Below are positions 1,640-23,417 of a stretch of 40,722 nucleotides of DNA, one piece after another. Positions within the stretch are counted from its first letter, which is position 1. Each line of letters opens with the position of its first letter. Both the position numbers and the translations under genes were made by a program. The notes beneath the pieces are model-generated. The model worked only from the letters and a program-made list of their open reading frames with translations. It was not told where the DNA came from and did no database searches. This stretch comes from Candidatus Omnitrophota bacterium. Its GTDB lineage: Bacteria; Omnitrophota; Omnitrophia; Omnitrophales; JACQLI01. The stretch lies in NCBI GenBank assembly GCA_016204125.1, contig JACQLI010000023.1:1-40722 (forward strand). The letters are read 5' to 3'.

Positions 1640-1888
1640 TTATTCTTCCTCCGCTGCGATTGCTTCAAGTTTGGCAGCAAGATCAGGGTGGGTCGATTTT
1701 AATATCGAAGCGGCTTCTCTGATCGTAGCGGCATGGCCCTCACCATGTTGGTGACTTCCTTCTACTGCTTCACCGCCATGTTCTTTCACCTCGGAACCGC
1801 CGTGCTCTCCTGCAAGAAGAACTGCAGGACTCCACAAGGTTGTACCTAACATTAATGCCAAACCAATCAACATGCTCTTCCGATTCAT
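1640..1888 (-). CDS. small secreted His/Gly/Glu-rich protein
   Basis: Signal peptide MNRKSMLIGLALMLGTTLWSPAVLLA. The mature part carries EHGG repeats and HQHGEGH. Its start overlaps the upstream stop by 4 nt. Confidence 0.55.
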   Translation of the reverse strand: MNRKSMLIGLALMLGTTLWSPAVLLAGEHGGSEVKEHGGEAVEGSHQHGEGHAATIREAASILKSTHPDLAAKLEAIAAEEE

Positions 1889-2871
1889 TTTTCTCCTCCT
1901 GTTGTTTTTAGGTTTTTAAATTGAAACGACGTTTTTACCCCATTCCATTCTTTTCCATCTACTTCAACGTACGGATAGAAAAAAATGTTGACGGGTGGTC
2001 CTGATTGCTTGGGGACAAGATTGATATCCCGTCCCACACTGATGAGAAACTTATTCGTGTCGTAATTTCCGAAATACACCTCCTTTCTTTCCGGATGTTT
2101 CCAAGCTTCGGAAGCATCCACTGGTTGCCAACCTTTTCCTTCTTCATAAAATTCCGCCCAACAGTGATATCCCGGAATCTCTCCCTCAGCTCCATCCGGA
2201 ACTGTGAGTCCGATTTTAAAACGTGCCGGAATCTCCGCCGCATGAGCCATAGAAATAAAAAGCGAATGAAAATCGGTGCAATTTCCTTTTCCAAGAAGAC
2301 AGGCTCTCGCCGTGTCACCGCGCCCCCATCCCGGAATTGTCTTATCATATTTCATCCAATTGATCACATTTTCATAAATGCCTCTTGCTTGCTCAAGTAA
2401 ATTGCGCTTTCCGTGGATCGCCTGTTGCGTTCTTTTCCTCACTTCGTCATTGACCACCATGAGATGATTCGGCTTCAGATACCGATTTACACCAGTTTCG
2501 TGGTTTGAACTGGCAAAATTTTTCTGAAGGGTTTGAGCATAATAAGTCACTTGGAAATTGAGACCTTGCGGAACACGATCTGAAACTTCAAAATAGGCCA
2601 TTTCATTTCCATAGACGGGATCCTTGGTGATTCGATATGGCAAGCCTGTTATGATCTCCCGTTTTTTTACAATTTGTCCTTCCCGAGAAGAAGCAAGCGG
2701 AATCCATACACTCAGTTTTTTTGCATCCTGAGGGATCGCGCCAATGTAAGTTTCATAACTCACCTTAAACTCCCGCTGCGATGGAAAAGGGTCGACTCCT
2801 TTATGCGACTCAAACAAATAAATAGATCCTAATAGGATGACTGCTCCAGAAAATAGAAATAATTTATTCAT
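1885..2871 (-). CDS. transglutaminase-like (Cys-His-Asp) domain protein, N-terminal signal/anchor
   Basis: GNCTDFHSLF (Cys), GYHCWAEFY (His) and WQPVDASE (Asp) appear in the order typical of the transglutaminase core. I moved the start to the ATG at 2871 (MNKLFLFSGAVILLGSIYLF), 4 nt after the upstream stop. The ORF-track start at 2949 would overlap the upstream gene by 74 nt. Confidence 0.8.
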   Translation of the reverse strand: MNKLFLFSGAVILLGSIYLFESHKGVDPFPSQREFKVSYETYIGAIPQDAKKLSVWIPLASSREGQIVKKREIITGLPYRITKDPVYGNEMAYFEVSDRVPQGLNFQVTYYAQTLQKNFASSNHETGVNRYLKPNHLMVVNDEVRKRTQQAIHGKRNLLEQARGIYENVINWMKYDKTIPGWGRGDTARACLLGKGNCTDFHSLFISMAHAAEIPARFKIGLTVPDGAEGEIPGYHCWAEFYEEGKGWQPVDASEAWKHPERKEVYFGNYDTNKFLISVGRDINLVPKQSGPPVNIFFYPYVEVDGKEWNGVKTSFQFKNLKTTGGEK

Positions 2872-2875
2872 GTTG

Positions 2876-3319
2876 TCACAATACAACCAACTGATAGCCT
2901 TGATCCGCCCATTTTGCAATACTCGGATGGCCTCGGTATTCAGCGACAAGGGAAGCTTTTCTTTCTTTAAGTTTGTCTTTCACCAGAAAAGCAGAAGCAC
3001 AGTAATCGCAGATAACTTCTGTGATGCCGGCTTTTCTGAGTTCTTCATACACCGGTTTCAGTTTATCCTGCGACTCAGGATCGAGCCATTCGCTCACCCA
3101 TTCGGTTCCGGCCCCGTCAAAGACAAGAACAACTTCATGCCCATGTTCTTTCAATTCTTTCGAATAAAGCAACGCGTGCACCGCTCGCGCCATGCCTTCG
3201 TGGCTTTCCTTCCCCGCCTGAAAAATAATCAGATACTTTCCACTTTCAGCGAAAGCATTTGGAAAATAACTGGTTGTCATGAGAGCCGCCAAAAGCACTG
3301 CCATTGTGAAACGCTTCAT
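2876..3319 (-). CDS. DsrE/DsrF-like family protein with signal peptide
   Basis: Signal peptide MKRFTMAVLLAALMTTSYFPNAFA. It has a KYLIIFQAGKESHEG...HEVVLVFDGAGTEWV beta-alpha pattern like the DsrE fold and a C-terminal CDYC. Confidence 0.5.
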   Translation of the reverse strand: MKRFTMAVLLAALMTTSYFPNAFAESGKYLIIFQAGKESHEGMARAVHALLYSKELKEHGHEVVLVFDGAGTEWVSEWLDPESQDKLKPVYEELRKAGITEVICDYCASAFLVKDKLKERKASLVAEYRGHPSIAKWADQGYQLVVL

Positions 3320-3322: not shown

Positions 3323-4102
3323 TCACCTCCTCTTGTATGGAATATTAACGAAAGGTGTTTTAATCATCCCCAATAGCGATTGCCACTCTTTTTCCTGCAA
3401 GTAAGGAAGACCGTACACAAGCGTTCGAGTATCTTTCCTCTTGTGGAAAGACTTAACGATTCTGTCCCAAAAAGAAAAAATGCTTGAGTAATTAGAATCT
3501 GTTTCGCTTCGAATTTGCGAATGATGTACTCGGTGCATATTGGGCGTAACGATTATCGCGCGAAAAATTCGGTCGATCTTTTCAGGCAGTGCGACATTCG
3601 AATGATGAAAAATGATGATCGGCTGCAAACAGAGTTCATAAATCAAAAGTTGAATAAATTGCATTCCAATCAAAGGAATGACAATGAGACGGAGAAGTGA
3701 AGAGAATACAATTTCTCCGGTATGAAACCTGAGAGCACTCGTCGCATCAAGTTCCAGGTCTGAATGATGCATTCTGTGGAACCGCCAGAGAAATGGAATC
3801 TGGTGATTGGCCACGTGCCAAACATACATCCAAAGATCAAAGAGTACGAAGGCGAACGCGCCTTCTATCCAAGAGCTCAAGCTTAATTGGTGAAGAAGCC
3901 CCCATGACCGGCTTTCTGCAAAATGCATCACTTTTAACGTTACGGTAGAAAAAAGCAAGGAGATGATAAGACCATTTAAAACTCCGATTCCGAGATTAGG
4001 TAACGCGTGGCGGAATCGATCATCCCTGCCTTGGAAAAGAGGGAAAATCCCCTCCATCCAGAACACAAGTCCAAGGCTCGCGACTTCAACCCAAAATTTC
4101 AT
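3323..4102 (-). CDS. fatty acid hydroxylase / sterol desaturase family membrane di-iron enzyme
   Basis: Three His boxes, HVANH, HRMHH and HRVHH, sit in a polytopic hydrophobic protein. Confidence 0.85.
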   Translation of the reverse strand: MKFWVEVASLGLVFWMEGIFPLFQGRDDRFRHALPNLGIGVLNGLIISLLFSTVTLKVMHFAESRSWGLLHQLSLSSWIEGAFAFVLFDLWMYVWHVANHQIPFLWRFHRMHHSDLELDATSALRFHTGEIVFSSLLRLIVIPLIGMQFIQLLIYELCLQPIIIFHHSNVALPEKIDRIFRAIIVTPNMHRVHHSQIRSETDSNYSSIFSFWDRIVKSFHKRKDTRTLVYGLPYLQEKEWQSLLGMIKTPFVNIPYKRR

Positions 4103-4764
4103 CGAATCTCCGGATAGAGCTTTCCTTTCAAGCCTAAAATATTAAAGCCTGAGTAACATAAAGCAACAAGAAATATGTTAATCAGTTTTTGTCGGACGCA
4201 ACCATTTTGAGTAAACCGCCGCGCCGATGTCACAACTGGGTCTTGAATAATAACGGGACTTGTCAGCCAACGCAGCCGCTGATAAAAATCAATGTCTTCA
4301 AACGACACAGTCTCACTAAAACCATATAATTTTTCGAAAAGCTTTCTGGTAACGAAAAATCCCTGGTCTCCGTAAGAAAAGAAATGGAATCTCGTATAGG
4401 TCTCGTAGAAACGCAGAAGCCACTGGCGATTGTCGAATTTCATCCTAAAGCGGCCTGCGCTGGCGCCTTGACTGACGACTTCTTTGATCTGCTCTAAACC
4501 ATTCTTAGGTAAGCGAGTATCCGCATGCAGAAAAAGAAAAACATCGCCAGTTGCTATTCTAGTCCCTTCATTCATCTGGCGCGCCCTTCCTTTAGCCGAG
4601 GAAATGACGTTTGCCCACTTAGAAGCAAGCGAAACCGTTTTGTCGGTTGATCCTCCATCCACGACAATTATCTCGTCAGGTTGGTGATGAGAACAAAGAT
4701 CTTGTAAAGTATCACAAATGGTCGACTCCTCATTGTAGGTGGGAATAATAACAGATATCTTCAT
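4099..4764 (-). CDS. GT-A fold glycosyltransferase, TIGR04283-like (ArsS-associated transferase 2)
   Basis: ISVIIPTYNEE, EIIVVDGGSTDKT, GRARQMN, LFLHADTRLP, YGDQGFF, FEDIDF and TSARRF. I set the start at the ATG at 4764 (MKISVIIP). The longer ORF-track start would overlap arsS by 110 nt. Confidence 0.8.
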   Translation of the reverse strand: MKISVIIPTYNEESTICDTLQDLCSHHQPDEIIVVDGGSTDKTVSLASKWANVISSAKGRARQMNEGTRIATGDVFLFLHADTRLPKNGLEQIKEVVSQGASAGRFRMKFDNRQWLLRFYETYTRFHFFSYGDQGFFVTRKLFEKLYGFSETVSFEDIDFYQRLRWLTSPVIIQDPVVTSARRFTQNGCVRQKLINIFLVALCYSGFNILGLKGKLYPEIR

Positions 4765-4777
4765 GCCTTTTACCTTT

Positions 4778-5743
4778 TCACTTTTTACTTTCCAATGCTC
4801 CCTGGCAACTAGAACCGCATCCGGCCGTACACCCAAAACAATGCTCCCCGGTTGCGATTCTGAAATCCTCAAGCTGGGCGGGATCAAGGTTAAAAATAGT
4901 TAAAAGCCTGCCATTTTTCATCTGCATACCTTGAGCCTGATTGAAATCGCAATCATAAACTCTCCCGTCCCACGATACGCTCAAGGTGTTTTGGCACATA
5001 AGACCGTCCAAAGTGGCGGGATTGAAACTGTTCATCAAAAGTTGGGTATAAGTTTCGTACTGGTTAAAGGCCTTTAGATATTTTGTGTATCGGGTAATTG
5101 GCATATTGGTAATGGTATAAAGACGATTAAAAACAATCCCCCAATCCTCCTTGAGTCTTTCTTTGTAATCTTCTTCAAGCTGATCCTGAGCTGGAGGCAA
5201 ATGGGGACCAACCGGATTGTAAACTAGACTGAGGATAAGATTACTCCCTTCCTTCCCATAGCCAAGCTCATTTAATTTCAAAAGGGCTTTGATGGATTCA
5301 TCAAATACACCCTTGCCTCTTTGTTTGTCCACGTTTTCTTTTAAGTAGCAAGGTAAAGAAGCGACAATTTCAACCTGGTGATCCGCCAAAAATGTGTCCA
5401 AATCCTCCTGGCCTGGCACAAAGAGCACGGTTAAATTGCAACGGTCAATTACATGAATGCCGCGCTTCTTTGCTTCCGAAACCAAATACCTAAAATTGGG
5501 ATTTAGTTCTGGTGCACCGCCTGTGAGATCAAGTGTTTTGAATTGAGCTCGATCCATAAAATAGACAACGGCTTCTGCCGTTTCATGGTTCATATTTTCC
5601 CGTGTTTTGGTCGGCCCCGCTTCAACATGACAATGCACACAAGCGAGATTACAAAGTTTCCCAAGATTAACCTGAAGGATCTCTATCTTTTGTTTCCGAA
5701 GCCGGGCGCTAACTTCCCCAAGCTTCTCCTCGAAACGATTCAT
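4778..5743 (-). CDS. arsS: arsenosugar biosynthesis radical SAM protein ArsS (radical SAM / Cys-rich C-terminal domain, TIGR04167-like)
   Basis: CNLACVHC radical-SAM CxxxCxxC triad near the N-terminus and a Cys-rich C-terminal tail CFGCTAGCGSSCQGAL. It sits beside arsM and the two context-linked transferase families. Confidence 0.85.
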   Translation of the reverse strand: MNRFEEKLGEVSARLRKQKIEILQVNLGKLCNLACVHCHVEAGPTKTRENMNHETAEAVVYFMDRAQFKTLDLTGGAPELNPNFRYLVSEAKKRGIHVIDRCNLTVLFVPGQEDLDTFLADHQVEIVASLPCYLKENVDKQRGKGVFDESIKALLKLNELGYGKEGSNLILSLVYNPVGPHLPPAQDQLEEDYKERLKEDWGIVFNRLYTITNMPITRYTKYLKAFNQYETYTQLLMNSFNPATLDGLMCQNTLSVSWDGRVYDCDFNQAQGMQMKNGRLLTIFNLDPAQLEDFRIATGEHCFGCTAGCGSSCQGALESKK

Positions 5744-5746
5744 CTT

Positions 5747-6901
5747 TTAAGCTCCTATTCTCGATAATAAAATAAAACTTGCTGCTGAAAAAAATGCTGC
5801 TACCGGCAAAGTCAAAAACCATGCGCCCAAAATGGAAGAAATCACATTCCACCGCGCTTTTCCATTCACAAGACCGATTCCGAAAAGGGCTCCGCAAGAA
5901 ACATGGGTCGTTGATACCGGCATTCCCCACTGGGAAGCAAAAATAACCAAAATGGCAGTGACCAAATTGGCCGCCAGTCCCTGGCCATGATTCATGTAAG
6001 TGATCTTGTGAGAGACCGTTTCGGCCACTTTCCGTGCGCCCAGGATTCCGCCGACCGCCATCGCCAAAGCAACAAATCCGACATTCCAAGTTAAACCAAG
6101 CGCACTTGAAGCCACAAGAAGAGCAACGATCTTTGGCGTATCATTTAGTCCTCTGGCAAAACTAACAGCTCCCGCACTCAGGAAATGGAAGAAATCAAGA
6201 ACCGACTGAGCGTTCACGCCAAACATTTTCCCTTCATAAATCTCAATCGCTTTGGCTTTGCAGCTTTTCTCATTTCCAACAAATACCTCGGGCAACGTAA
6301 TTTCTGTGCTGGTAAACATTTGTCCATTTTCCAAACCCAAATCTGCCAGAGGAATAACTTTTTCACCAACGCAGAGACAACTCTTTCGCGTAATACCGAG
6401 TGTTTTTCTTGCCTTATGCATCACAAAATAAACCGCTGTGGTCAAAACAAGCGCCATAAAGGGACTTGCGATAAGAGGCATGAGAAAGTTTTTTCCCAAG
6501 GTAGTGAATCCAAGTTCCCCTCCAATTGCTATAAATCCGGCTCCGACCAAAGCTCCTGTAAGGCCGTGTGTGGTTGAAATCGGAATCCCAAAGCGTGCGG
6601 CTAAAAGGACGGTTAAACCCGCGCCTAAGGCGACTGCTGCGAGAAACGCCGGATTTCCAATCACAGCATCCGGAACAAGCCCTTTACCCGTAAACGTTCT
6701 CACCAGACGGGTGGCAAGAAAAAGTGCCGCAATTGATCCTGAAAGTGTCGTCGCCGTAGCCCAGCTCAAGGCCTTCCGGTAATCTGTCGTTCCACTTCCA
6801 AACAGCGTGGCTACGCCCTTGAAATTGTCATTCGCACCATTTGCATACGCTACCAGCAATACTGCGATTAATACTGTTAACATCCAAACCATTAGCAGCA
6901 A
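5747..6901 (-). CDS. PiT (PHO4) family inorganic anion transporter
   Basis: Two-fold repeat signatures GANDNFKGVATL and GLNDTPKIVALL in a protein with about 10 TM segments and a central hydrophilic loop. It overlaps the arsM stop by 10 nt and ends 3 nt before the arsS start. Confidence 0.85.
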   Translation of the reverse strand: MLLMVWMLTVLIAVLLVAYANGANDNFKGVATLFGSGTTDYRKALSWATATTLSGSIAALFLATRLVRTFTGKGLVPDAVIGNPAFLAAVALGAGLTVLLAARFGIPISTTHGLTGALVGAGFIAIGGELGFTTLGKNFLMPLIASPFMALVLTTAVYFVMHKARKTLGITRKSCLCVGEKVIPLADLGLENGQMFTSTEITLPEVFVGNEKSCKAKAIEIYEGKMFGVNAQSVLDFFHFLSAGAVSFARGLNDTPKIVALLVASSALGLTWNVGFVALAMAVGGILGARKVAETVSHKITYMNHGQGLAANLVTAILVIFASQWGMPVSTTHVSCGALFGIGLVNGKARWNVISSILGAWFLTLPVAAFFSAASFILLSRIGA

Positions 6902-8106
6902 CCTCCATCCAAACAGACAGATTTCGCTACAGTTGTTTTTCTGTACCGTTTCCCTTTGGTTTCGCGCGGATCACGTTCCGCTGTGCGGTGACAATCAAAA
7001 GGTTTGGCTTTGGCAAGCGGAACATCTTTCGACGGTGGCACCAAAATGAAATCGTTGTGATAGGGCGCCTTGGAATAGATCTGATAGGTCTTATCACAGA
7101 CCGCCGTTCTTGCACCGCGTTTCAGAACATGCCCATCATCATCCACAACCTGTTTCCATGGTCCCTTATAAATCACGGCTTGATTTCTTTCCCAGCAAGG
7201 GCCTTCCTTACCTTTATAGGCCGTAATCGTGACCGAGCGAAATTCGATTCCTTGAACAATGCGCCACGGTCTTTCATCAAACTTTTCAATTTTGAGTCCG
7301 TAAAAACCGGCTTCCTCAAAAGCCCTGACAAATTCTTTCTCCTGAAAGGCTCCCGAGATACATCCACTCCAAAGCTCTGGATCCTTCTGAAGTTTATGAG
7401 GGATGGACTCGTCCGAAACAATATCGGAAATTGCGACACGTCCGCCCTTTCTCAAAACTCGGTGAATTTCCCGGAACAAAGTTTTCTTGTCTTCAGATCG
7501 GACGAGATTCAAGACACAATTGGAAACAATCACATCAATGGATTCATCTTCAATGAGCGGCGATTGCTGCCGTATGTGTTCCACCGCATCCTCGAAATGA
7601 GTCAAATCGTCCACCGAATGAATCGGGTTGCCTTTGAACGTTGCCTCTAAGGCTTCAAGGTCTGTCCTTAAATCTTGAATGCGGCCTCTTCGGAACTCCA
7701 CATTGTGCCAGCCGATTCGGTCACCAACCTCCTTTTGATATTTTCTGGCGAGCGCTAACATGGGAGGGTTGAAATCAATGCCAATTACTTTCCCCTTCGG
7801 ACCCACGATTTGAGAGGCGATGTAACAGATTTTCCCTGCACCGGATCCCAGATCCAAAACCACATCGCCTTCTTTCAGATAGCGCGAAGGATCCCCGCAG
7901 CCATAATCCCTTTCGAGGATTTCCTTAGAGATAACCTTAAGATACTTGGGATCGTAGCTCGTGGGACAGCAAAGAGCTTCTTCTTTGGCCTTTGCCCCCC
8001 GCGCATACCGCTCCCGGACCGCTTGTTCGACGGGCAGCCTTCCGTTCAAGAACAGCTCTCGACCATTAGTGTGATGTTTTCCATTTCCATTATGTGAATA
8101 TTTCAT
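6892..8106 (-). CDS. arsM: arsenite S-adenosylmethionine methyltransferase ArsM with C-terminal extension
   Basis: SAM motif VLDLGSGAGK. The conserved As-binding cysteine contexts YGCGDP, SNCVLNL and WSGCISGA are present, plus LCCP near the N-terminus and GGCC at the C-terminus. I set the start at the ATG at 8106 (MKYSHNG), preceded by GGGAGGTAAGG. Confidence 0.85.
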   Translation of the reverse strand: MKYSHNGNGKHHTNGRELFLNGRLPVEQAVRERYARGAKAKEEALCCPTSYDPKYLKVISKEILERDYGCGDPSRYLKEGDVVLDLGSGAGKICYIASQIVGPKGKVIGIDFNPPMLALARKYQKEVGDRIGWHNVEFRRGRIQDLRTDLEALEATFKGNPIHSVDDLTHFEDAVEHIRQQSPLIEDESIDVIVSNCVLNLVRSEDKKTLFREIHRVLRKGGRVAISDIVSDESIPHKLQKDPELWSGCISGAFQEKEFVRAFEEAGFYGLKIEKFDERPWRIVQGIEFRSVTITAYKGKEGPCWERNQAVIYKGPWKQVVDDDGHVLKRGARTAVCDKTYQIYSKAPYHNDFILVPPSKDVPLAKAKPFDCHRTAERDPRETKGKRYRKTTVAKSVCLDGGCC

Positions 8107-8770
8107 GTTCCTTACCTCCCCTAAGATTTTTCGCCGATCCGACCGATCGGTGCCAGATGACCGAGCGGCCGTCCGCCGCTTGACCGACTGGTACTTCATC
8201 AAGATCATCAAGTTTCTGAAGCAAATAGTAAGACAAATTCTTTTCATTCAACTTGTTTAATGTCGATTCAAACACGTGCTGCGAACTCCACGGAATATTT
8301 TTGAAGATTGAGGGCTGTTCACAATTGGTTCCAATCAGATAGTAACCGCCGTCATAGGCAGGACCGATGACAACGTCATAAAACTCAAGGGCGTCAAATC
8401 CTTTCATGATCAAATCGGCCCTAAGGCCCAAAGTGTCGCTTCCAAGCGCCATTACTTTTTTGAACCCCTTTTCGAAAGCAAACTGAAATGCATTTTGAAG
8501 ACGCACTCCAAGACCAGAACCTCTTTGAACCACATATTCATAAGAGCCAGAAAGCCAGGAACGAAAGGCCTCTTCTTTCTCTGGAGGATCAAAAGCGACG
8601 ATTAGTTTTATGAAATCTTGGGGAAGAGAATTAAGAATTCCAAGGTTTGTCTCGGTAAGCTCACGATAGGCTTGCGCAGCGCGTTGGTCTCCGACGCTTT
8701 TTGCAAGCCGCGTTTTTACCTTGCCCGGCTCCGGATATTTCACGAAATACAAAATCAATTTATCTCCCAT
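8090..8770 (-). CDS. DUF2064 / TIGR04282-like (ArsS-associated transferase 1)
   Basis: KYPEPGKVKTRLA, ALGSDTLGL and GPAYDGGYYLIG, the nucleotidyl/glycosyl-transferase-like hallmarks of DUF2064. Confidence 0.8.
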   Translation of the reverse strand: MGDKLILYFVKYPEPGKVKTRLAKSVGDQRAAQAYRELTETNLGILNSLPQDFIKLIVAFDPPEKEEAFRSWLSGSYEYVVQRGSGLGVRLQNAFQFAFEKGFKKVMALGSDTLGLRADLIMKGFDALEFYDVVIGPAYDGGYYLIGTNCEQPSIFKNIPWSSQHVFESTLNKLNEKNLSYYLLQKLDDLDEVPVGQAADGRSVIWHRSVGSAKNLRGGKEHEIFT

Positions 8771-9479
8771 GAGAACTCACCAGATATTTTTCTCTTAAAT
8801 TCTCCGGATTCTCCTTTAAGAGCTTATAGCCAAAAAGGATCCGAGCGTTTCTAAGGATTTGGCGAAGAACGCCGTGTTCCATGTACCGTCTTGAGGAGAC
8901 AGCTACCGGCTCCTCGATCATAGTGATGCGGCCTTTCTTCCTCATGCAATCCGAAAAAATCAAATCCTCAAGCAAGGGAACTTCCGGAAATCCATTGAGT
9001 GATTCGAAGACTTCCCGCTTCACAAAAATTGCATTCGTTCCCACAAGACAATGCATCAGGCCAAGGTAAATGGTATTTAGGAGAAACTCGTAGACACCAA
9101 GTAGGAAACTCGTAGGCTCGTATTTTTTCCTGAATCCCCCTCCGATGTACCTTTGCTCAATCTTCTCCTGTACAAGTCCAATCGCCCTGTCTGGAAGACG
9201 CACATCTGCATGAGTAAAAAGGAAGACATCTGATTGGGCTTCGAAGGCTCCCGCATTCATCTGAAGTGCGCGATCCGGATACGCTGTCTGAAACAGGCAG
9301 ACACTTGGATACTCACGCCGGATGATTTCATCGGTGCCGTCCCGGGAATTCCCGTCCACAGCAATCACCTCATCCGCTCCGAGCGAAAGGAGGTGTGTCA
9401 GCGTCCGAGCAATAAGGGTTCTTTCGTTCGCAACCGGAACAATAATGGAAACTGTTGGTTTTTTGTCCATAACTCCCAT
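8760..9479 (-). CDS. GT-A fold glycosyltransferase, second TIGR04283-like paralog
   Basis: VSIIVPVANE, EVIAVDGNSRDGT, RALQMN, LFTHADVRLP, LEDLIF and VSSRRY. These are collinear with the 4099..4764 protein. An alternative ATG lies at 9470. Confidence 0.75.
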   Translation of the reverse strand: MGVMDKKPTVSIIVPVANERTLIARTLTHLLSLGADEVIAVDGNSRDGTDEIIRREYPSVCLFQTAYPDRALQMNAGAFEAQSDVFLFTHADVRLPDRAIGLVQEKIEQRYIGGGFRKKYEPTSFLLGVYEFLLNTIYLGLMHCLVGTNAIFVKREVFESLNGFPEVPLLEDLIFSDCMRKKGRITMIEEPVAVSSRRYMEHGVLRQILRNARILFGYKLLKENPENLREKYLVSSHGR

Positions 9480-10819
9480 CCCAAAAAGAAATAAAAGATG
9501 CCATATTCAACCAAGCGAGACAAATCGAAGAAGTGAGGTTTCCCCTGATAGGTGAAATAGAAGTCTAGGTAATAAAGAAAAATCAAGCCCGAAAGCAGGA
9601 TCAGAGAACGCAGAGGTATGAAGAAAAGAAACGGAAAGATCCATGTGAGGTACCACGGATTTCCTGTTGGAGCGAGGAGAAAAAGGAACGTCAAAACCAC
9701 AAGCGAGGCCTGGCAGAAGGAAAGGAGATCCTCTTTTCTCTTAAGCCAATGAAGGACGAGAACAATAGCTGTGGAGAAAATTCCTCCAGCGATTATCCGA
9801 CTCATTGCATGAGTCCACTCATTATTCACCGGTAGCATTGAAACGCTGCCGTGAATCAAGCTAAACAGGCCGTCGTTGACCCTCCAAGAGGTTGCAAAGA
9901 TTCCCAAACCTTCAAAAAGAGAAACTCCCACACCGGAAAAAGGAAGGTAAAAGAGAACGAGTAAAACCAAAAAGAGTCCAACTCCCAGAAAGGTTTGGCG
10001 CCTTTGCTTTGGCAAAGTCCACGCGATAAGAAGCGGGAAAAGAACGACGGGAAACCATTTGGTTAAGGCGGCTAGACTAAGAAGTCCATAGGCGGATACG
10101 AGCCAGTCTCTCGTCAGGCAATAGATCATTCCCGTAAGAAAGAGAATAACAAACACATCAAGATGAAGGCTGTTTGAAAATTCTTTTAATACGAGAGGCG
10201 ACCAGGCATAAAGAAGACTCCATTCTTTGGAAATGTCAAAGCGCTTAAGAATAGCAACTGTCAGAGAGAGAATTCCAAGTTCAGCGACAAGAATCATCGC
10301 TTTCCAACCCCAGAGTTTCCAAGGCGTGATCCACTGAGACAGGGCAAAGAGAATCTGAGCGAAGGGAGGATAAATCGTTTTAATCCCCGGGTGATTGATT
10401 CTTTCAAAGACGGCTCCCATGTCGGGAGAGCTAATCTCTCCCCTTTCTTCTCCTGTCTGAAAAGCTTCCTTGGGCGAAAGCGCGTAGGGATTCTCTCCTC
10501 GGAGAAGCGTCTCGCCATCCCAAAGGTAGCGGTAAGGATCGGTTTCCTGAATCGGGTTGGATGGAAGATACGCAACACGGCAAAGAATGGCGATCACAAA
10601 AATCCACAGAGACAGAAAAGACTTTGAGTGAGTTTCTTTCGAATTCCTCCTTAACCACTCGAAGGTTGCAAAGTAAGCAATGAACGCCAAACCTTCAAGC
10701 ATAAGGAAAGATAGAATCGGCCGCTCCGCATGGCCCGCTCCGAAGACAAAAGAATGGCTAAGCCATGAAATCCCAATTTGCGTCAACAAAATGAACGCGC
10801 CCAAGACGATCAGAGTCAT
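9398..10819 (-). CDS. polytopic membrane protein, GT-C type (DUF2029/GT87-like) glycosyltransferase
   Basis: At least 10 hydrophobic segments. The first periplasmic loop carries ETDPYRYLWDGETLLRGENPY, resembling the acidic-loop motif of polyprenyl-phosphate-sugar dependent GT-C enzymes. Confidence 0.6.
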   Translation of the reverse strand: MTLIVLGAFILLTQIGISWLSHSFVFGAGHAERPILSFLMLEGLAFIAYFATFEWLRRNSKETHSKSFLSLWIFVIAILCRVAYLPSNPIQETDPYRYLWDGETLLRGENPYALSPKEAFQTGEERGEISSPDMGAVFERINHPGIKTIYPPFAQILFALSQWITPWKLWGWKAMILVAELGILSLTVAILKRFDISKEWSLLYAWSPLVLKEFSNSLHLDVFVILFLTGMIYCLTRDWLVSAYGLLSLAALTKWFPVVLFPLLIAWTLPKQRRQTFLGVGLFLVLLVLFYLPFSGVGVSLFEGLGIFATSWRVNDGLFSLIHGSVSMLPVNNEWTHAMSRIIAGGIFSTAIVLVLHWLKRKEDLLSFCQASLVVLTFLFLLAPTGNPWYLTWIFPFLFFIPLRSLILLSGLIFLYYLDFYFTYQGKPHFFDLSRLVEYGIFYFFLGWELWTKNQQFPLLFRLRTKEPLLLGR

Positions 10820-12090
10820 GGTCGAGTCCCCCGTTCACAAATTTGGGCAAACCTTTTCGCCGAAGGACGGATCTTTCGCTCCTGCGTTTCGTAATCCACC
10901 TCAATGAGCCCAAAGCGGGGTGAGAACCCTTCCGCCCATTCATAATTATCAAGCAGGGACCAGTAGAGGTAGCCAAAGACCGGGGCTCCTTCTTGGATCG
11001 CCTTCGCAAGTTCACCTAAATGGCTCTCGATAAATTCAAACCGCTCCTCGTCATGATCCGTGCAGACTCCGTTCTCGGTAACCAGGAGCGGAAGCTTATA
11101 TTGGGAGAATTCCTTGATGAGGCGGTAAAGGCCCTGCGGGTAGATTTCCCAGGAAAGAAAATTACGCCTGCCCACTTGCCGGTGGTGTTTCAAGGTACAG
11201 ATGTCGCCGAAGAGAGCGGGGATCCGAAAGCCCTCGTTATGAACAAAATCACGCGTGTAGTAATTCATGCCGATGAAATCAAGCGTGCGTGCCTTGGGGA
11301 GCTGAATCTTAAAAAGGCCGGGATAAAAAATGCGGCCGCGGATCAAGGCCCTGATGAAAAGATGATTGAACATCAGGTTCCGAATCCAAACGGAAATCCG
11401 GTCCTTCCAGGAACGGTCGGAACAGGGAGTAAAGATCAATACGTGTTTCGCAATCCCCACTTGGGCGGGTGAGCGCTTCAGCCGCTGGTTCACCTCTTTG
11501 ACGGCGTCGTAAGCCAGGACATGACCTTTGAGGAGATGGCCTAATGCTTGCAAGGTTTTTTCGTAGGATCTTTCAGCCGGAGGCCATTCCCCCATGAAGT
11601 AACTTTTAAAAACATAGGCGACAGGTTCATTTAAAGTGATCCAGTACCGGACACCTTCGCCGAGCGTTTCGACCGCTTTTCGGACATATCGTGCAAAAAG
11701 ATTCGGTGTCTTGTGTGAAAGCCATCCGCCCTGCTTGGCAAGCCAAAGAGGCAGGGTAAAATGATGCAGCGTGACGATGGGCTCTAACCGATTCAATTTG
11801 AGGGCCTCAATGACCTCGCGGTAATGCGAAAGCGCCTCCTCGTTGAATTGGCCTTCCTCGGGTTCGATCCGGCTCCATTCCAGGGAGAAGCGGTGGGCAT
11901 TATGGTGAAGAGATTTCGCCAAAGAGAAATCTTCCCGGAACCGATTCCAGTGGTCACAAGCCTTCCCGGAACGCTCTTTGACCTTCCCGTTTTGCTCCCA
12001 ATCCCACCAGTCACTGTTTATGTTATTTCCTTCCACTTGATGAGAGGAAGTCGCCGCCCCCCAAAGGAAATCTTTTGGGAATTCAAACAT
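10816..12090 (-). CDS. glycoside hydrolase family 1 (beta-glucosidase-like)
   Basis: FLWGAATSSHQVEGN, acid/base ITLNEP and nucleophile VTENG, with no signal peptide. I set the start at the ATG at 12090, preceded by GAGGTGAGGAAG. The ORF-track start at 12099 is a GTG. Confidence 0.9.
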   Translation of the reverse strand: MFEFPKDFLWGAATSSHQVEGNNINSDWWDWEQNGKVKERSGKACDHWNRFREDFSLAKSLHHNAHRFSLEWSRIEPEEGQFNEEALSHYREVIEALKLNRLEPIVTLHHFTLPLWLAKQGGWLSHKTPNLFARYVRKAVETLGEGVRYWITLNEPVAYVFKSYFMGEWPPAERSYEKTLQALGHLLKGHVLAYDAVKEVNQRLKRSPAQVGIAKHVLIFTPCSDRSWKDRISVWIRNLMFNHLFIRALIRGRIFYPGLFKIQLPKARTLDFIGMNYYTRDFVHNEGFRIPALFGDICTLKHHRQVGRRNFLSWEIYPQGLYRLIKEFSQYKLPLLVTENGVCTDHDEERFEFIESHLGELAKAIQEGAPVFGYLYWSLLDNYEWAEGFSPRFGLIEVDYETQERKIRPSAKRFAQICERGTRP

Positions 12091-12415
12091 CTTCCTCACC
12101 TCTCAACGCTTCAATAACGTCATCCGCACAATTTTCCCGCATAAGAAAATAGGTTTCGATAGCTTGAATCGCCATTTCAGCGTCATCTCCCTCTACCTCA
12201 ACGACCAGTTTTGATTTCCATGTCGCTCCTAAAAGGAGAAGCCCCAGAATGCTTTTCCCGTCCACCGAAAGCCTCCCCTTGCGGATCCGGATGTCAGAGC
12301 TAAATTGCTTAGCGAATAAGATAAAACGGGTTGCCGTGCGGGCATGAAGACCGAGCTGACACGGCATCGTTACTTCTGTCTTCCTGATCCTCGCGTCCTT
12401 GCTTTCGAGTTCCAT
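12083..12415 (-). CDS. ptsH: HPr-family phosphocarrier protein
   Basis: Active-site His context QLGLHARTA and regulatory Ser context DGKSILGLL. I set the start at the ATG at 12415, directly preceded by AGGAGGTGGGAG. Confidence 0.8.
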   Translation of the reverse strand: MELESKDARIRKTEVTMPCQLGLHARTATRFILFAKQFSSDIRIRKGRLSVDGKSILGLLLLGATWKSKLVVEVEGDDAEMAIQAIETYFLMRENCADDVIEALRGEEDV

Positions 12416-12430
12416 CTCCCACCTCCTCAT

Positions 12431-12603: not shown

Positions 12604-14046
12604 TTATGCCAACCGAATCAGCCTCTTCGCTAATTTAGGAAACCAACCGCTAAACAACTTTTCTCTGTAGTATTGATCACAAGAACGTTTCACTGCTTGC
12701 GAAAGTGTCGGATAAACATGGATCGTCTGGGAAATCTGGGTGATCGGAATTCTTGCTTTCATGGCGAGAGCAAATTCGTGGAGGAGTTCTCCCGCATTCG
12801 GACCCAGAAGATGGGCACCCAAGATTTGATTCTTCCTATCGCAAACCAGCTTAATGAGGCCGTGGCCTTCCCCTTCGATCACCGCTCGATCCACATCTTC
12901 AAATTGAAACTTGAATACCTGAATATTCTTTTCTCCGTATTCTTTTTTGGCTTCTGCCTCGGTCATTCCAACGCGGCCTAACTCAGGATCCGTATAAGTG
13001 ACCCACGGCACAACGCGATAATCGGTTTTTCGGTTCATAAAAGGGAAAAGCGCATTCGAGACGACAATCCCAGCTTGATATTCCGCTACATGCGTAAAGG
13101 GATAAAGTCCCGTGACATCACCCGCTGCGAAGATGTGTCTTAAGGAAGTTCGCATCGTAGTGTCCACTTTAATTCCTTTCTTATCGTGCTCAACACCGAT
13201 AAGCTGTAAATTAAGGCCTTCGATATTTGGAGCACGGCCGATGGCAATCATCACTTCATCGACTTCCAAATTCAAATTGCCATGGATCTCGCACTGAGCC
13301 GCTAACAATCTCTTCCCATTCCCATTTCCCTTGACTTCCTTAACTTCCATGCAGGTTACAATATCAATTCCTTCTTTCTTAAGAATCCCCTCTAAGGCAT
13401 CCGCAAGTTCCTTATCCTCACGCGGTAAAATCTGACCCATTTTTTCAATAACCGTAACCTTAGAACCTAACCGTGCGAATACTTGCGCAAACTCCATTCC
13501 AATCGGTCCTGCGCCAAGAATCGCAATCGACTTGGGTAAGTCCTTAAGTTGAAGAGCGGTAATATTGGTAAGGGCACCTGATTCTTTAAGACCAGGTATG
13601 GGTAGGATCACAGGTCTTGATCCCGTTGCTATCAAGAATTTTTTAGCTTGAACTCGTCTTCCCTGTTTTCCGTTCGTCTCGAAGGTATGAGGATCGATGA
13701 ACTTCCCTTCTCCAAAGATCACCTCAACACCCATCTTTCTGAATCTCTCGGGATCGTCATTCTTGCCAATGCGTTCTTGAACTGAACGCATCCGGTTCAT
13801 AACTTTTTTGAAATTTACCTGCGCTCCAGATTTCTCGATCCCGAATTCTTCAGAACGCTTGATGAGGGAAGCGACTTTCGCAGACTGAACGAGGGTTTTT
13901 GTCGGAACGCAGCCCCAGTGAAGGCAGTCTCCCCCGAGAGATTCTTTCTCCACTAGGGCAACCTTTGCTCCAAACTGAGCGGCTCCACTTGCGGTAACAA
14001 GCCCTGCAACACCGCCTCCTATAATCACCAGGTCAAACTGTGTCAT
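12604..14046 (-). CDS. class I FAD-dependent pyridine nucleotide-disulfide oxidoreductase (dihydrolipoyl dehydrogenase / mercuric reductase-like)
   Basis: FAD fold VIIGGGVAGL, redox-active disulfide GGDCLHWGCVPTK, NAD fold ILGAGPIGMEFA and a C-terminal interface motif HVYPTLSQ. Confidence 0.85.
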   Translation of the reverse strand: MTQFDLVIIGGGVAGLVTASGAAQFGAKVALVEKESLGGDCLHWGCVPTKTLVQSAKVASLIKRSEEFGIEKSGAQVNFKKVMNRMRSVQERIGKNDDPERFRKMGVEVIFGEGKFIDPHTFETNGKQGRRVQAKKFLIATGSRPVILPIPGLKESGALTNITALQLKDLPKSIAILGAGPIGMEFAQVFARLGSKVTVIEKMGQILPREDKELADALEGILKKEGIDIVTCMEVKEVKGNGNGKRLLAAQCEIHGNLNLEVDEVMIAIGRAPNIEGLNLQLIGVEHDKKGIKVDTTMRTSLRHIFAAGDVTGLYPFTHVAEYQAGIVVSNALFPFMNRKTDYRVVPWVTYTDPELGRVGMTEAEAKKEYGEKNIQVFKFQFEDVDRAVIEGEGHGLIKLVCDRKNQILGAHLLGPNAGELLHEFALAMKARIPITQISQTIHVYPTLSQAVKRSCDQYYREKLFSGWFPKLAKRLIRLA

Positions 14047-14716
14047 AGGAATTCCCTCCCTTGATTTTTTTGTAAATTGACGGCAGAAAGGAAATGAAAA
14101 TCAAAAGCACGCCGGCCAGAATCAAATTGAGAAAGGCCGCTCGACTGGCTCCTTGAACTCCTTCGAGAAGCGCATCTGCAAAATAGGTGTAGATAAAAGT
14201 CCCGGGTAGCATTCCAATTACTGACGCTAGGAGATAATCGCGATACCTGACGGCTGAGAAACCTGCACCAAAATTGAGACCGTTAAAGGGAACAATTGGA
14301 ATTAGGCGAAGACGGAAAATGGTTTTAAAGCCAGACCTTCCGATTTGCTCATCGAGCTCGGCAAGTTTTCCGCCCTTTAGGAAGCTCTTTACAAAATCAC
14401 GCCCCAAATAACGTGCTGCAAAGAAAGCGAGCGACGCTCCAAGGTTTGAAGCAATCACGTTATAAAGCGTTCCCCATGCCGTACCAAAAACGGCTCCCCC
14501 AGCAAGTGTTAGCAGCGAACCTGGTAAAGCGACAACACATCCAACAGAATAAATCGCAATAAAAATGAACGGTCCCCACCATTGGCCCCGTAGGGATTCA
14601 AGAAAACTGACGATCTGTTCCTTTGTAAAATACTGAGAAAGGGGTGTGTAGCGCACGACGAGACCAACGACAAGAATAACAGCTACTAAAATGATAAATC
14701 TCGTTATTTTGTTCAT
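14033..14716 (-). CDS. TVP38/TMEM64 (DedA superfamily) membrane protein
   Basis: LPGSLLTLAGGAVFG and RLIPIVPFNGLNFGAG motifs in a multi-TM protein. Its stop overlaps the oxidoreductase start by 14 nt. Confidence 0.8.
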   Translation of the reverse strand: MNKITRFIILVAVILVVGLVVRYTPLSQYFTKEQIVSFLESLRGQWWGPFIFIAIYSVGCVVALPGSLLTLAGGAVFGTAWGTLYNVIASNLGASLAFFAARYLGRDFVKSFLKGGKLAELDEQIGRSGFKTIFRLRLIPIVPFNGLNFGAGFSAVRYRDYLLASVIGMLPGTFIYTYFADALLEGVQGASRAAFLNLILAGVLLIFISFLPSIYKKIKGGNSYDTV

Positions 14717-15029: not shown

Positions 15030-15272
15030 TCAAGTTCTTGAGGCGCTTCCTAAATTCTCTTTCATCAAGCGCGAGAACGCCTCAAGCAAACGTTCTGGAA
15101 TTTCTCCACAGCTGACATCAAATTGAGCATCTGTCTTTTTTCCGAGCTCGGTTATGAAATCGCGGCATGGTTTGCACTTCTTGACGTGAGACTGAAACTG
15201 TCTCTGGGCCTCACTAGAAGGTTTTGTCTCAGCAAATGTATAAATCAAATCTGCGGCTTCGTTACAGGTCAT
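15030..15272 (-). CDS. small soluble ZAS-like (HxxxCxxC) putative anti-sigma / redox-sensor protein
   Basis: HVKKCKPC motif and an upstream Cys (MTCNE) with no TM segment. It is collinear with the anti-sigma factor at 16961..17254, including EIPERL versus EIPPEL. Its start forms an ATGA overlap with the DUF547 gene stop. Confidence 0.55.
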   Translation of the reverse strand: MTCNEAADLIYTFAETKPSSEAQRQFQSHVKKCKPCRDFITELGKKTDAQFDVSCGEIPERLLEAFSRLMKENLGSASRT

Positions 15273-16372
15273 GTCTTGTTCTCCTTTTCATTGAGGCTCC
15301 AGTCATATTCGAGCCATTCGATTTTGGTTTTCTCAGAGATTTTTTCTTTAGCCTCTTTCGGCCCGTGGGTCTTCACAAAACTGAGAATCCCGTCCGCCCT
15401 TTCAAAATCCTTCCGGAACCATTTGAAGATGGGAGAAAGATAAAGTGTATCGGTCGCCTCATCGTAACGGGATTTCTTTGGATCTGACAGGAAATTCCGG
15501 ACCTGATCATTGAGTTGGGCATCGAGCTTACTTCCTTGGTAAGGTTCGCTTCGAATGACCGGACAACCCAAGGAGGCGCAAACAAGCGCAAAGTGGATCC
15601 TTGGCTCCTGAAATTCTTTTCGAAGGATTTGGTGTTCAATATGATTAAGGCTCAACGACTCGTCGAAAACTTTGAGGACTTTGCGGGCCCAAACATCCGG
15701 AATCTGCTGGATGCTATTTTCGGGATAGGCCAGCGCTTTCCATCCGAATCTTTTCTGCAAAGGATAATGATCGATCACTAACTTAACTGCGGCTGCATTG
15801 TAGGTGTTGATCCAGAAGGCAATCTTTTCATCTCGGCTCATTTCCTCATAGTTTTCTTTGGAAAGACTTTCGAGCGATTTCATATATTCATTCAAACCCT
15901 GTCTCTCGCGCTTTAATTTCAAATAGTCTACCCTGTCATTAACGGCATAACCTCGAAGGACTTTCGCATAGGCAGAATAATCAAAAGTAAACTCTGCGCT
16001 CGCAAATGCACTTTCGAAAAACGTCGAAGTACCTAGAAATAAAAAGAGAAAAAGAGGCATGCGATGAAGAAACATCGGACAATGTCCACCGCCCAAGAAC
16101 TGCCAGATCCTTGTATTCAAAACGAAATGACGGATCGCCGGCTTTCCTTGCTCCTCTTCTCTAAAAATGAGGCAGACCAGAAAACGCATCGAGATCTTCA
16201 ACGTTTCCCACAGGGCATAGAAAATGCCGGACAAAATTGCCAGCATTCCACCGAGGACAAGCAGAGGACTCAACCACCAACCAAAGAGGATATTTATCAA
16301 AGGGGACACGGCCAACATAAATCCCACCGTCATGCCTCCGATGCCCATCAATGCAAGTTCGCCGGGTTTCAT
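15269..16372 (-). CDS. DUF547 domain membrane protein
   Basis: WINTYNAAAVKLVI and IHFALVCASLGCP hallmarks of DUF547, with N-terminal hydrophobic helices. Its start forms an ATGA overlap with the upstream stop. Confidence 0.75.
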   Translation of the reverse strand: MKPGELALMGIGGMTVGFMLAVSPLINILFGWWLSPLLVLGGMLAILSGIFYALWETLKISMRFLVCLIFREEEQGKPAIRHFVLNTRIWQFLGGGHCPMFLHRMPLFLFLFLGTSTFFESAFASAEFTFDYSAYAKVLRGYAVNDRVDYLKLKRERQGLNEYMKSLESLSKENYEEMSRDEKIAFWINTYNAAAVKLVIDHYPLQKRFGWKALAYPENSIQQIPDVWARKVLKVFDESLSLNHIEHQILRKEFQEPRIHFALVCASLGCPVIRSEPYQGSKLDAQLNDQVRNFLSDPKKSRYDEATDTLYLSPIFKWFRKDFERADGILSFVKTHGPKEAKEKISEKTKIEWLEYDWSLNEKENKT

Positions 16373-16960: not shown

Positions 16961-17254
16961 TTACGAGGAACCGGCCAGGCGGAGCCACAACCGTTTCCAG
17001 AATCCAGGTGGCTGTAGGCCCGGCTTGGACTTAATAAAGCTACGTAACTTCTGCCTAAGCTCGGGAGGAATCTCTCTCGGATGGAGTTCTTTCGAGAGCT
17101 TGATTGTTTGCCTGTAGGTATTGATGAAGGCAAGACAGCCCGGGCAATCAGCCAAATGCTGTTCGAGCTGTTGCCTCAGCGCAGGCTCAAGCGAGCCGTC
17201 AATGTAGTCATAGAGGAGCTTGCCGACATCACGACACCTAAGCATCGTATTCAT
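16961..17254 (-). CDS. zinc-binding anti-sigma factor (ZAS, zf-HC2), soluble
   Basis: HLADCPGC (HxxxCxxC) plus an upstream Cys (LRCRD). It overlaps the ECF sigma stop by 4 nt. I see no TM segment. Confidence 0.75.
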   Translation of the reverse strand: MNTMLRCRDVGKLLYDYIDGSLEPALRQQLEQHLADCPGCLAFINTYRQTIKLSKELHPREIPPELRQKLRSFIKSKPGLQPPGFWKRLWLRLAGSS

Positions 17255-21396: not shown

Positions 21397-21415
21397 AACC
21401 TTCCTCCCAACCTTT

Positions 21416-23408: not shown

Positions 23409-23417
23409 TTGATGATC

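Follow-up and report, generated by a model that had tools for sequence, protein, structure and literature searches.

The stretch of DNA that we analysed, called the window here and taken at its full 40,722 nucleotides, is contig JACQLI010000023.1 of GCA_016204125.1, the metagenome-assembled genome of an uncultured Candidatus Omnitrophota bacterium. On its minus strand a gene for a PiT-family (PHO4) transporter lies between the genes for an ArsM-type As(III) S-adenosylmethionine (SAM) methyltransferase and for ArsS, the radical SAM enzyme of arsenosugar biosynthesis, in a series of genes that share this strand over at least 14.5 kb (Table 1). We found that the transporter is a member of a well-defined clade whose dominant genomic home is the ArsS/ArsM cluster, and we tentatively propose that it is a dedicated transport component of the arsM-arsS organoarsenical pathway. 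A first-pass annotation of the same DNA had placed a PiT gene between arsM and arsS; the reading frame is real, its two signature motifs read exactly as given there, the name of ArsS held, and that of ArsM is probable. ArsS scores 451.3 bits against TIGR04167 (cut-off 300) and carries the Pfam domains Radical_SAM and DUF3641. The methyltransferase matches solved ArsM structures (CmArsM, 4KW7, E 9e-35) and has cysteines at the positions corresponding to C72, C174 and C224; it scores under all NCBIfam ArsM cut-offs (NF040538, 390 versus 500 bits; the others, 200 versus 263 and 130 versus 400).

The three genes are tightly packed. The ATG at 6892 is a more likely PiT start than the mechanical TTG at 6901 because it overlaps the arsM stop in a TAATG arrangement, with TAA (6892..6894) and ATG (6890..6892) sharing one base, and because a GGAGG lies 9 nt upstream. 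The 10-nt overlap with arsM reported at first applies to the TTG start, whereas the likelier ATG leaves an overlap of a single base; NCBI's own protein call, of 378 amino acids, begins one methionine further in than ATG 6892. At the other end the PiT stop lies 3 nt from the arsS start, as first described, with an AGGAG inside the PiT 3' end. From this arrangement, arsM, PiT and arsS are predicted to be translationally coupled under any candidate PiT start.

Membership of the PiT family was clear from profile and structure comparisons. The protein scored 209.1 bits against Pfam PHO4 (PF01384; cut-off 33.7) over profile positions 1-350 of 350, and it contains two PD001131 repeats, one with GANDNFK and IPISTTH and the other with GLNDTPK and MPVSTTH, judged by published PiT motif definitions (PMC7413737, PMC3126765). 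The canonical GANDVANA core is absent from both repeats, NFK and TPK standing in place of VAN, and Arg247 replaces the signature His. This is a subfamily difference and no ground for exclusion from PiT, because PitA departs from the core too. The only relative in the PDB was TmPiT (6L85, E 5e-20), and an AlphaFold2 model (pTM 0.76) matched the same structure in Foldseek (E 4e-11, TM-score 0.71-0.74), the next match having an E value of 0.014. Matches to Pfam HTH_IclR (22.8 bits) and NCBIfam IclR (19 bits) were rejected as spurious; they contained no significant stretch and fell in a Gly/Ala-rich hydrophobic region (residues 99-140).

Within the family, the window protein is neither a PitA nor a CysP ortholog. 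It reached 76.5 bits against the NCBIfam PitA model (NF033774, cut-off 800), over the C-terminal third only, and 70.7 bits against the CysP model (NF053884, cut-off 400). BLASTP scores were 70-80 bits to E. coli PitA and a Streptomyces PitH-type protein and 173-375 bits to members of its own clade, so that the protein does not nest among housekeeping PitA orthologs, a placement that the first-pass annotation had named among the grounds on which its idea would fail. Public databases use generic names ('inorganic phosphate transporter' or 'anion permease'), and NCBIfam has no model for the PiT clade, though the neighbouring TIGR04282, TIGR04283 and ArsS families are named arsenosugar genes.

We then compared residues of the substrate and coupling sites across the clade. 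A HMMER search of 1.84 billion representatives gave 597 clusters at E <= 1e-30, and conservation was counted over 137 full-length representatives drawn from the best 150 of the 597; 94 clade sequences taken from genomic loci formed a second set, which agreed with the first. In TmPiT, phosphate is bound by D22, D258, S105/T106/T107 and S345/T346/T347 (PMC7413737). The window equivalents are D22, D251, S106/T107/T108 and S327/T328/T329, and all eight ligands are kept in 132-137 of the 137 representatives (the Ser-Thr-Thr tip of HP1 in 135-137). The Na1 and Na2 sites likewise retain their Asn-Asp pairs, and the protein shares with TmPiT and the human PiT1 and PiT2 (SLC20) the inverted PD001131 repeats and the equivalents of K314 and W378.

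The surroundings of this site differ from those of the Na+-coupled carriers. At the third position after each signature Asp (D+3), where TmPiT has N25 and N261, the clade has Lys: K25 in 133 of the 134 representatives with a residue at that column and in 94/94 locus sequences, K254 in 137/137 representatives (preceded by P253 in 135/137), and both together in 93/94 locus sequences. The third-sodium Asp (TmPiT D327, hPiT2 E575) is replaced by Asn309 in 125/137 representatives, as aligned to 6L85, and TmPiT Gln243 by His236 in 133/137. Arg247 takes the place of the signature His in 93/94 locus sequences, the equivalent hPiT2 H502 being essential for transport (PMC3126765). Thr49 replaces hPiT2 E55 in 93/94, and the T49/R247/N309/H236 combination occurs in 91/94. 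The window protein thus lacks the hallmarks of Na+-coupled PiTs, the acidic third-sodium ligand and the acidic E55 position both being neutral. E. coli PitA likewise has Asn and Gln at these two positions. PitA is proton-coupled, and the coupling-related residues of the clade look like those of PitA rather than those of the Na+-coupled PiTs.

Comparison with PitA also limits what the motifs can say about substrate. The first-pass annotation had noted that both signatures differ from the GANDVAN-type motif of phosphate carriers and had thought phosphate nutrition less likely. Both do differ, but the divergence is in itself no evidence on substrate because PitA, a carrier of phosphate and arsenate, itself reads GFHDTAN and GANDGQKG. 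The motif argument against phosphate is likewise weaker than was thought there: a C-terminal D+3 Lys is normal in phosphate carriers of the PitA/PitH type (TC 2.A.20), being present in E. coli PitA (GANDGQKG) and in the Streptomyces PitH-type protein (GTNDAQKT), and the signature Lys was for that reason dropped as unique evidence against phosphate. With PitA and actinobacterial PitH, which are proton-coupled metal-phosphate and arsenate carriers, the window protein shares the family, the fold, an Asp in each signature and the neutral residues at the E55 and E575 (TmPiT D327) positions. It differs from PitA in overall sequence (~27% full-length identity), in length (~375 residues versus 499), in its N-terminal GANDNFK versus GFHDTAN, in its C-terminal R-G-L-N-D-T-P-K with Arg for His, and in an HP1 tip of STT versus SSS, and from both PitA and PitH in a cysteine-containing linker and in its arsM/arsS context. 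What sets the clade apart is the presence of Lys in the two repeats, together with NDTPK and the Arg.

The linker joining the two repeats spans about 65 residues. No hydrophobic segment was found at residues ~160-235, whereas TmPiT has its TM4/TM5 scaffold hairpin there, and the linker is probably cytoplasmic, given a Lys/Arg-rich stretch at its start and the outside location of the TmPiT N and C termini. Loss of the TM4/TM5 scaffold was considered as a novelty and discarded, an 8-helix backbone having already been predicted for prokaryotic PiTs and truncated hPiT2 still transporting (PMC3126765). The linker carries a triad, Cys172-x-Cys174 and Cys211, that is complete in 82/94 locus sequences, each Cys being present in 113-115 of the 137 representatives. 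Three thiols are the usual As(III)-binding arrangement in proteins such as ArsR, ArsD and ArsA.

Linkage of the clade to arsM and arsS was examined in two samples. Scanning one genome per GTDB species, we took the 80 PiT loci most similar to the query (49-78% identity); the reverse sample comprised the 80 metagenomic loci most similar to the window ArsS. Percentages from both are sample estimates, and many of the metagenomic contigs are short. As named in their records, the 80 PiT loci come from Omnitrophota, Planctomycetota including anammox genera, Bacteroidota, Cyanobacteria, Acidobacteriota, Verrucomicrobiota, Binatia, Nitrospiria, Zeta-, Gamma- and Deltaproteobacteria, Bacteriovoracia and others, and the clade of the arsM-PiT-arsS cassette spans more than 10 phyla. 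Of the 80 loci, 34 encoded ArsS within 6 kb and 37 an ArsM-like methyltransferase. The flanks reached at least 4 kb on each side in 46 loci; of these, 24 had ArsS within 6 kb (52%, against a chance expectation of ~0.4% for an assumed 3-Mb genome with one arsS each) and 28 had at least one cluster marker. With 11 further PiT-bearing loci from the ArsS-centred scan, 91 clade loci were available; a methyltransferase or ArsS was in range in 50, and in 42 of these PiT was directly adjacent on the same strand, never on the opposite one. PiT stood immediately beside the methyltransferase in 31 of the 91. The order methyltransferase-PiT-ArsS recurred in 13 other loci, from Omnitrophota, Planctomycetia, Cyanobacteria, Chthoniobacterales and unclassified metagenomic contigs, and a complete Ca. 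Loosdrechtia (anammox) genome contains it as a bare three-gene cassette. The enrichment next to arsS elsewhere, whose absence the first-pass annotation would have counted against its idea, is therefore seen in both counts, and its description of the transporter as hard-wired into the arsM/arsS unit is borne out by this enrichment and by the ArsS-centred sample, in which every PiT beside ArsS belongs to the clade and no PiT gene of another kind was found beside ArsS.

Association with ArsS reaches to the base of the clade. In a neighbour-joining tree rooted on PitA as single outgroup, ArsS-linked loci occurred in all branches, including the deepest ones, those of Cupriavidus and of an Acinetobacter plasmid. 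In Cupriavidus sp. KK10 (36% identity) the genes run PiT-ArsM-ArsS-oxidoreductase-DedA-TIGR04283-TIGR04282. On Acinetobacter portensis plasmid pJNE5-X3_NDM-1, a PiT 43% identical to the window protein lies in a cluster annotated by NCBI as arsS, TVP38/FAD oxidoreductase, DUF547, TIGR04283, TIGR04282, methyltransferase, 'inorganic phosphate transporter', methylthioadenosine (MTA) phosphorylase and sterol desaturase. The plasmid is an NDM-1 resistance plasmid from a cultured host, and its cluster (NZ_CP096121.1, 134403-153458) adjoins an IS3 element and Tn7-like transposition genes (TnsA, Mu-type transposase, TniB, TniQ), for which reason we regard it as mobile. The Omnitrophota metagenome-assembled genome CA_2019_TPBF_141 holds two methyltransferase-PiT-ArsS-oxidoreductase-DedA blocks on two contigs; each of the two PiT copies, at 64-65% identity to the window protein, has an ArsS cluster to itself.

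Some lineages show arrangements of their own. Six Flavobacteriaceae loci have a fixed order of AhpD-like, ArsS, rhodanese, TIGR04282, purine-nucleoside/MTA phosphorylase, methyltransferase, PiT, sterol desaturase, DUF547 and TIGR04283, save that rhodanese is absent from one and sterol desaturase from two others; the phosphorylase would fit a conversion of the ArsS product to a ribose-1-phosphate derivative. An Omnitrophota/Planctomycetes sub-branch has no ArsS in range: in one of its loci (L077 in our numbering) PiT is followed by a Pfam-confirmed radical-SAM-methyltransferase fusion (7115-9043), and in another clade locus (L034) a long upstream open reading frame (ORF; 1-2808) is similar to a methyltransferase. 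Clade members unlinked to arsS shared no neighbour family beyond a lineage-specific ABC ATPase in Flavobacteria.

Genes for other steps of arsenic metabolism also lie near PiT. An ArsC of the low-molecular-weight protein tyrosine phosphatase (LMW-PTP) type is encoded directly downstream of PiT in two loci (L014, 4543-5004; L034) and another in the cluster of a third; across all loci, this type was found in seven (LMWPc of one match being Pfam-confirmed) and the glutaredoxin type in none. ArsR-family genes stand beside PiT or ArsS in two loci and elsewhere in two more. A rhodanese gene occurs in a close relative of the window locus and in seven further loci, mostly of Flavobacteria. We considered this rhodanese-like neighbour as an Acr2-type arsenate reductase and rejected it, the active-site loop C-S-I-G-V-R (CX4R) being of the sulfurtransferase type and not CX5R.

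Pit genes in arsenic islands have precedent, and the context of the window gene is to that extent not new. In Burkholderia gladioli, arsR-pitA-aioAB lies beside the arsinothricin genes arsQML (PMC8552651), so that there too a Pit-type gene, known from annotation only, sits in an arsenic island near an organoarsenical arsM and radical-SAM pair; it is, however, divergently transcribed with the arsenite oxidase, whereas the window gene is embedded between arsM and a radical SAM gene. In Synechocystis sp. PCC 6803, arsM and arsS are adjacent and co-transcribed, and ArsS adenosylates dimethylarsenite (bioRxiv 10.1101/2022.09.23.509062; PMC13598754). The ArsM and ArsS genes belong to one unit there as in the window, where the pair is split by PiT and the cluster is much larger; no transporter of the Synechocystis unit is named in the cited papers. 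What is undescribed is the conserved association of a defined, widespread PiT subfamily with the arsS pathway, the PiT family itself and Pit genes in arsenic islands being already known. The first-pass annotation had not known of PiT as part of the described arsS/arsM neighbourhood, and full-text searches likewise gave us no paper on this clade or linking a PiT or phosphate transporter to arsS, arsenosugar clusters, DUF547, TVP38 or TIGR04283.

A sister group with Lys in both signatures (GGNDVSKG and SVNDTPKI) occurs in arsenic islands on 25 plasmids of the Bacillus cereus group and Priestia, for example in Priestia megaterium CP109762.1 (L168, 3398-4540) and on pBc10987 of B. cereus ATCC 10987 (BCE_A0168; L170, 7950-9143). 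The pBc10987 island encodes ArsR, PiT, an ArsL-like radical SAM enzyme with an 'RCCLKC tail', a MIP channel, CobW/P47K, a GNAT acetyltransferase (ArsN1 by name in the Priestia record), a second ArsR, Acr3/ArsB and ArsC. The RCCLKC motif is a feature of ArsL (bioRxiv 10.1101/2024.02.01.577332), and the island looks like an arsinothricin-type unit with its own uptake genes. These PiTs share GxNDxxKG, NDTPK and the Arg before the C-terminal signature with the window protein, at 28-37% local identity (87-100 bits). They differ in a short linker that has no Cys triad, in Val/Ile at the Asn309 position, and in their partners, which are ArsR, the MIP channel, ArsN1, Acr3 and ArsC, not ArsS or the TIGR04282/TIGR04283 glycosyltransferases. 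The Cupriavidus PiT is about equidistant from the window clade and this group, and one Lys/Lys PiT lineage is thus found in three independent arsenic contexts.

We infer from this evidence, with a probability of roughly 0.45, that the clade PiT serves the arsM-arsS pathway as a dedicated oxyanion importer whose substrate is most likely arsenate. PiT would be translated together with the methyltransferase and with ArsS. A small XO4-type anion is the expected cargo since the tetrahedral-oxyanion site of PiT transporters is complete; arsenate would be the most likely such anion and phosphate a probable competing substrate. Support for arsenate in particular is circumstantial, coming from LMW-PTP ArsC near PiT, the ArsR genes and the sister PiTs in arsenic islands, and Pit-type carriers are the classical entry route of arsenate (PMC8552651). 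Once arsenate was inside, an ArsC-type enzyme would reduce it, ArsM would convert the product to dimethylarsenite by methylation, and ArsS would add the adenosyl group. The neutral residues at the acidic coupling positions (Asn309, Thr49), together with Lys25 and Lys254 near the substrate aspartates, suggest that coupling is of the proton-dependent PitA type or cation-independent, not of the 3-Na+ TmPiT type; the two lysines, one helical turn from the substrate-binding Asp, may provide fixed positive charges in place of bound cations. The CxC...C triad in the linker may bind cytosolic As(III) and so tune or regulate transport. The first-pass annotation had offered movement of an intermediate as a second role. 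Carriage of a bulky intermediate is improbable, since the eight residues around the bare tetrahedral oxyanion of TmPiT are all unchanged in the window protein.

Several observations weigh against this proposal. The binding-site sequence cannot tell arsenate from phosphate, and in most clusters that contain PiT no gene for an arsenate reductase is present. Omnitrophota and anammox bacteria live anaerobically, in habitats where the prevailing arsenic species is usually As(III), not As(V). No arsenic-cluster gene lay within 6 kb in 18 of the 46 fully flanked clade loci (39%). From the other direction, a clade PiT was present in only 11-12 of the 80 ArsS-centred loci, or 3 of the 16 with full flanks (~15-19%), and the ArsS clusters of Burkholderia glumae BGR1 plasmid bglu_2p and B. 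thailandensis p2002721643 have an MFS transporter and no PiT, from a genus in which 49 plasmid records carry ArsS. The arsM/arsS pathway evidently has no need for PiT, since few ArsS loci carry it and Burkholderia use an MFS protein instead; PiT is a recurrent but optional module of the ArsS/ArsM cluster. As for the Cys triad, it is equally frequent in ArsS-linked (42/48) and unlinked (40/46) loci and absent from several ArsS-linked Flavobacteria, and the AlphaFold2 model has a pLDDT of 41-51 over linker residues 166-227, too low to model it. The two Burkholderia clusters also have no recognisable ArsM and hold an ECF sigma/anti-sigma pair, CcdA and thioredoxin, a YiiX-like cysteine hydrolase and a second radical SAM gene.

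In another reading, which we consider unlikely, the protein is an arsenate-discriminating phosphate importer that secures phosphate supply under arsenic exposure or out-competes arsenate at a time when the general Pit and Pst routes are a liability, co-expressed with the arsenic genes and not feeding them. In its favour, the phosphate-ligand set is complete, the coupling residues are PitA-like, and phosphate-transport genes are known in arsenic islands: in B. gladioli, uptake of the As(V) that AioAB produces would be counter-productive, and the sister PiT follows directly after an ArsR gene in the pBc10987 resistance island with its Acr3 and ArsC. In the window clade, however, the tightest and most conserved partners are the biosynthetic ArsM and ArsS and not efflux or resistance genes, the minimal cassette of Ca. 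Loosdrechtia comprises methyltransferase, PiT and ArsS only, Acr3, ArsB and Pho-regulon genes do not recur among the 80 PiT loci, and the duplicate copies of CA_2019_TPBF_141, each beside its own ArsS, would be odd for a nutritional transporter. That the gene is an ordinary housekeeping phosphate transporter lying between arsM and arsS by chance, as its generic database annotation and the 39% of fully flanked loci without an arsenic gene might suggest, is refuted by the co-occurrence counts (24/46 loci versus ~0.4% by chance) and hardly credible beside the recurrence of one gene order in 13 further loci, the predicted translational coupling on both sides, and a protein that is not a PitA or CysP equivalog.

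Other substrates were weighed on the same evidence. Because PiT is most often found immediately beside the methyltransferase, it could carry another pentavalent arsenic species (methylarsonate, dimethylarsinate or thioarsenate), either as salvage uptake for ArsS or as efflux of oxidised ArsM by-products. Genes of sulfur-relay type recur nearby (the DsrE-like gene of the window and the rhodanese genes described above), plant phosphate transporters are reported to take up monothioarsenate (PMC13051750), and the two extra lysines and the His-to-Arg change would alter the surroundings of the pocket. Against this, both Ser-Thr-Thr tips and both Asp are kept symmetrically, which fits four oxygens better than methyl groups, PiT carriers are ion-coupled importers, and no residue change points toward a hydrophobic sub-pocket, so that we rate this reading as quite improbable. 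A still smaller chance attaches to an unrelated oxyanion (sulfate, thiosulfate or selenite) used in some step of the cluster. CysP shows that PiT proteins can switch anion and its model gave a weak match (71 bits), the NCBIfam name of the ArsS family allows selenoprotein members, and sulfur-handling genes are near; yet the CysP score is far under its cut-off, no sulfate-assimilation genes recur in the PiT loci, and the Lys/Lys PiT group is in an arsenic setting in each of its three independent genomic contexts.

The genes around arsM-PiT-arsS complete the cluster (Table 1). The true ArsM start is probably internal, at a Met near 8106, because the maximal ORF extends 158 nt into the upstream TIGR04282 gene. 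The ArsM-like protein has a Cys-rich C-terminal tail (...KSVCLDGGCC), and in many other loci a shorter methyltransferase, only 27-33% identical to it, occupies the same position. The TIGR04282 and TIGR04283 proteins score above their cut-offs (187 versus 134 and 224 versus 182) and the second TIGR04283-like copy just below (171 versus 182). Families of the upstream genes recur beside PiT in other loci and on the annotated Acinetobacter plasmid; the HPr-like ORF is an odd member for such a cluster. Just upstream of the cluster lies an ECF sigma gene (17251..17877), a type of gene also present in the two Burkholderia clusters, followed on the minus strand (18830-28174) by genes that include an acyl-CoA synthetase, enoyl-CoA hydratase, 3-hydroxyacyl-CoA dehydrogenase, thiolase, a cNMP-binding patatin-like phospholipase and an FGGY sugar or glycerol kinase, and further on by a second GH1 gene (33067-34392, minus). 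Such a lipid-turnover neighbourhood might be connected with an arsenolipid product, but need not be.

Table 1. Features of the PiT gene and of the surrounding cluster, with positions in the window.
Feature	Position	Strand	Remarks
PiT-family (PHO4) transporter gene	5747..6892	minus	381 amino acids from ATG at 6892
Alternative PiT starts	TTG at 6901; ATG at 6883	minus	TTG is the mechanical start in the ORF list
N-terminal PiT signature GANDNFKGVATL	6803..6838	minus	residues 19-30; Lys25 at D+3
C-terminal PiT signature GLNDTPKIVALL	6116..6151	minus	residues 248-259; Lys254; preceded by Arg247, signature His elsewhere in PiTs
HP1 tip Ser106-Thr107-Thr108	6569..6577	minus	TmPiT phosphate ligands S105/T106/T107 by alignment to 6L85
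HP2 tip Ser327-Thr328-Thr329	5906..5914	minus	TmPiT phosphate ligands S345/T346/T347 by alignment to 6L85
Inter-repeat linker, predicted non-membrane	6209..6412	minus	residues 161-228
Linker Cys codons	6377..6379; 6371..6373; 6260..6262	minus	Cys172; Cys174; Cys211
arsM/PiT junction	6890..6906	minus	GGAGG 6902..6906, 9 nt, TAATG
PiT/arsS junction	5741..5756	minus	AGGAG 5752..5756 within PiT 3' end; TAA 5747..5749; 3-nt spacer; arsS ATG 5741..5743
ArsS	4778..5743	minus	
ArsM-type methyltransferase	6892..8247	minus	maximal ORF
TIGR04283 glycosyltransferase	4099..4887	minus	downstream; likely start 4764
Fatty-acid hydroxylase/sterol desaturase family	3323..4102	minus	downstream
DsrE-like	2876..3319	minus	downstream
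Transglutaminase-like	1885..2949	minus	downstream
TIGR04282	8090..8770	minus	upstream
Second TIGR04283-like glycosyltransferase	8760..9479	minus	upstream
473-amino-acid membrane protein	9398..10819	minus	upstream
GH1	10816..12099	minus	upstream
HPr-like (PTS phosphocarrier) ORF	12083..12430	minus	upstream, between GH1 and disulfide oxidoreductase
Pyridine-nucleotide disulfide oxidoreductase	12604..14046	minus	upstream
VTT/DedA	14033..14716	minus	upstream
DUF547	15269..16372	minus	upstream

Bacterial arsenic biology is usually told as accidental entry followed by resistance through reduction, efflux and methylation. A PiT carrier coupled between arsM and arsS in more than 10 phyla suggests instead that in some bacteria the supply of arsenic to the pathway is deliberate, which bears on what arsenosugars and related compounds are for. 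A bolder extension, which we hold to be doubtful, is that the Lys/Lys PiTs as a whole are dedicated arsenic-acquisition transporters through which bacteria of many phyla would deliberately import arsenate to make organoarsenicals, the CxC...C motif acting as an As(III) sensor that throttles uptake; the products would be 5'-deoxy-5'-dimethylarsinoyladenosine (DDMAA), arsenosugars and arsenosugar lipids for the arsS clusters and arsinothricin-like compounds for the Bacillus islands. If this were true, a transporter family would for the first time be known to have evolved for bringing arsenic in and not for expelling it, and the organoarsenical products would serve a function and not be merely detoxification waste. 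The cultivable hosts of the clade, among them Acinetobacter portensis JNE5, Cupriavidus sp. KK10, Altibacter lentus JLT2010, Mariniflexile sp. AS56 and Xenococcus sp. PCC 7305, make the idea directly testable. More generally, the clade is a natural experiment on the change of ion coupling in PiT carriers, and the signature NDxFKG, R-G-x-NDTPK, Asn309 and CxC...C could refine the generic name 'inorganic phosphate transporter', under which a clade gene would otherwise be counted as a marker of phosphate uptake when metagenomes are read.

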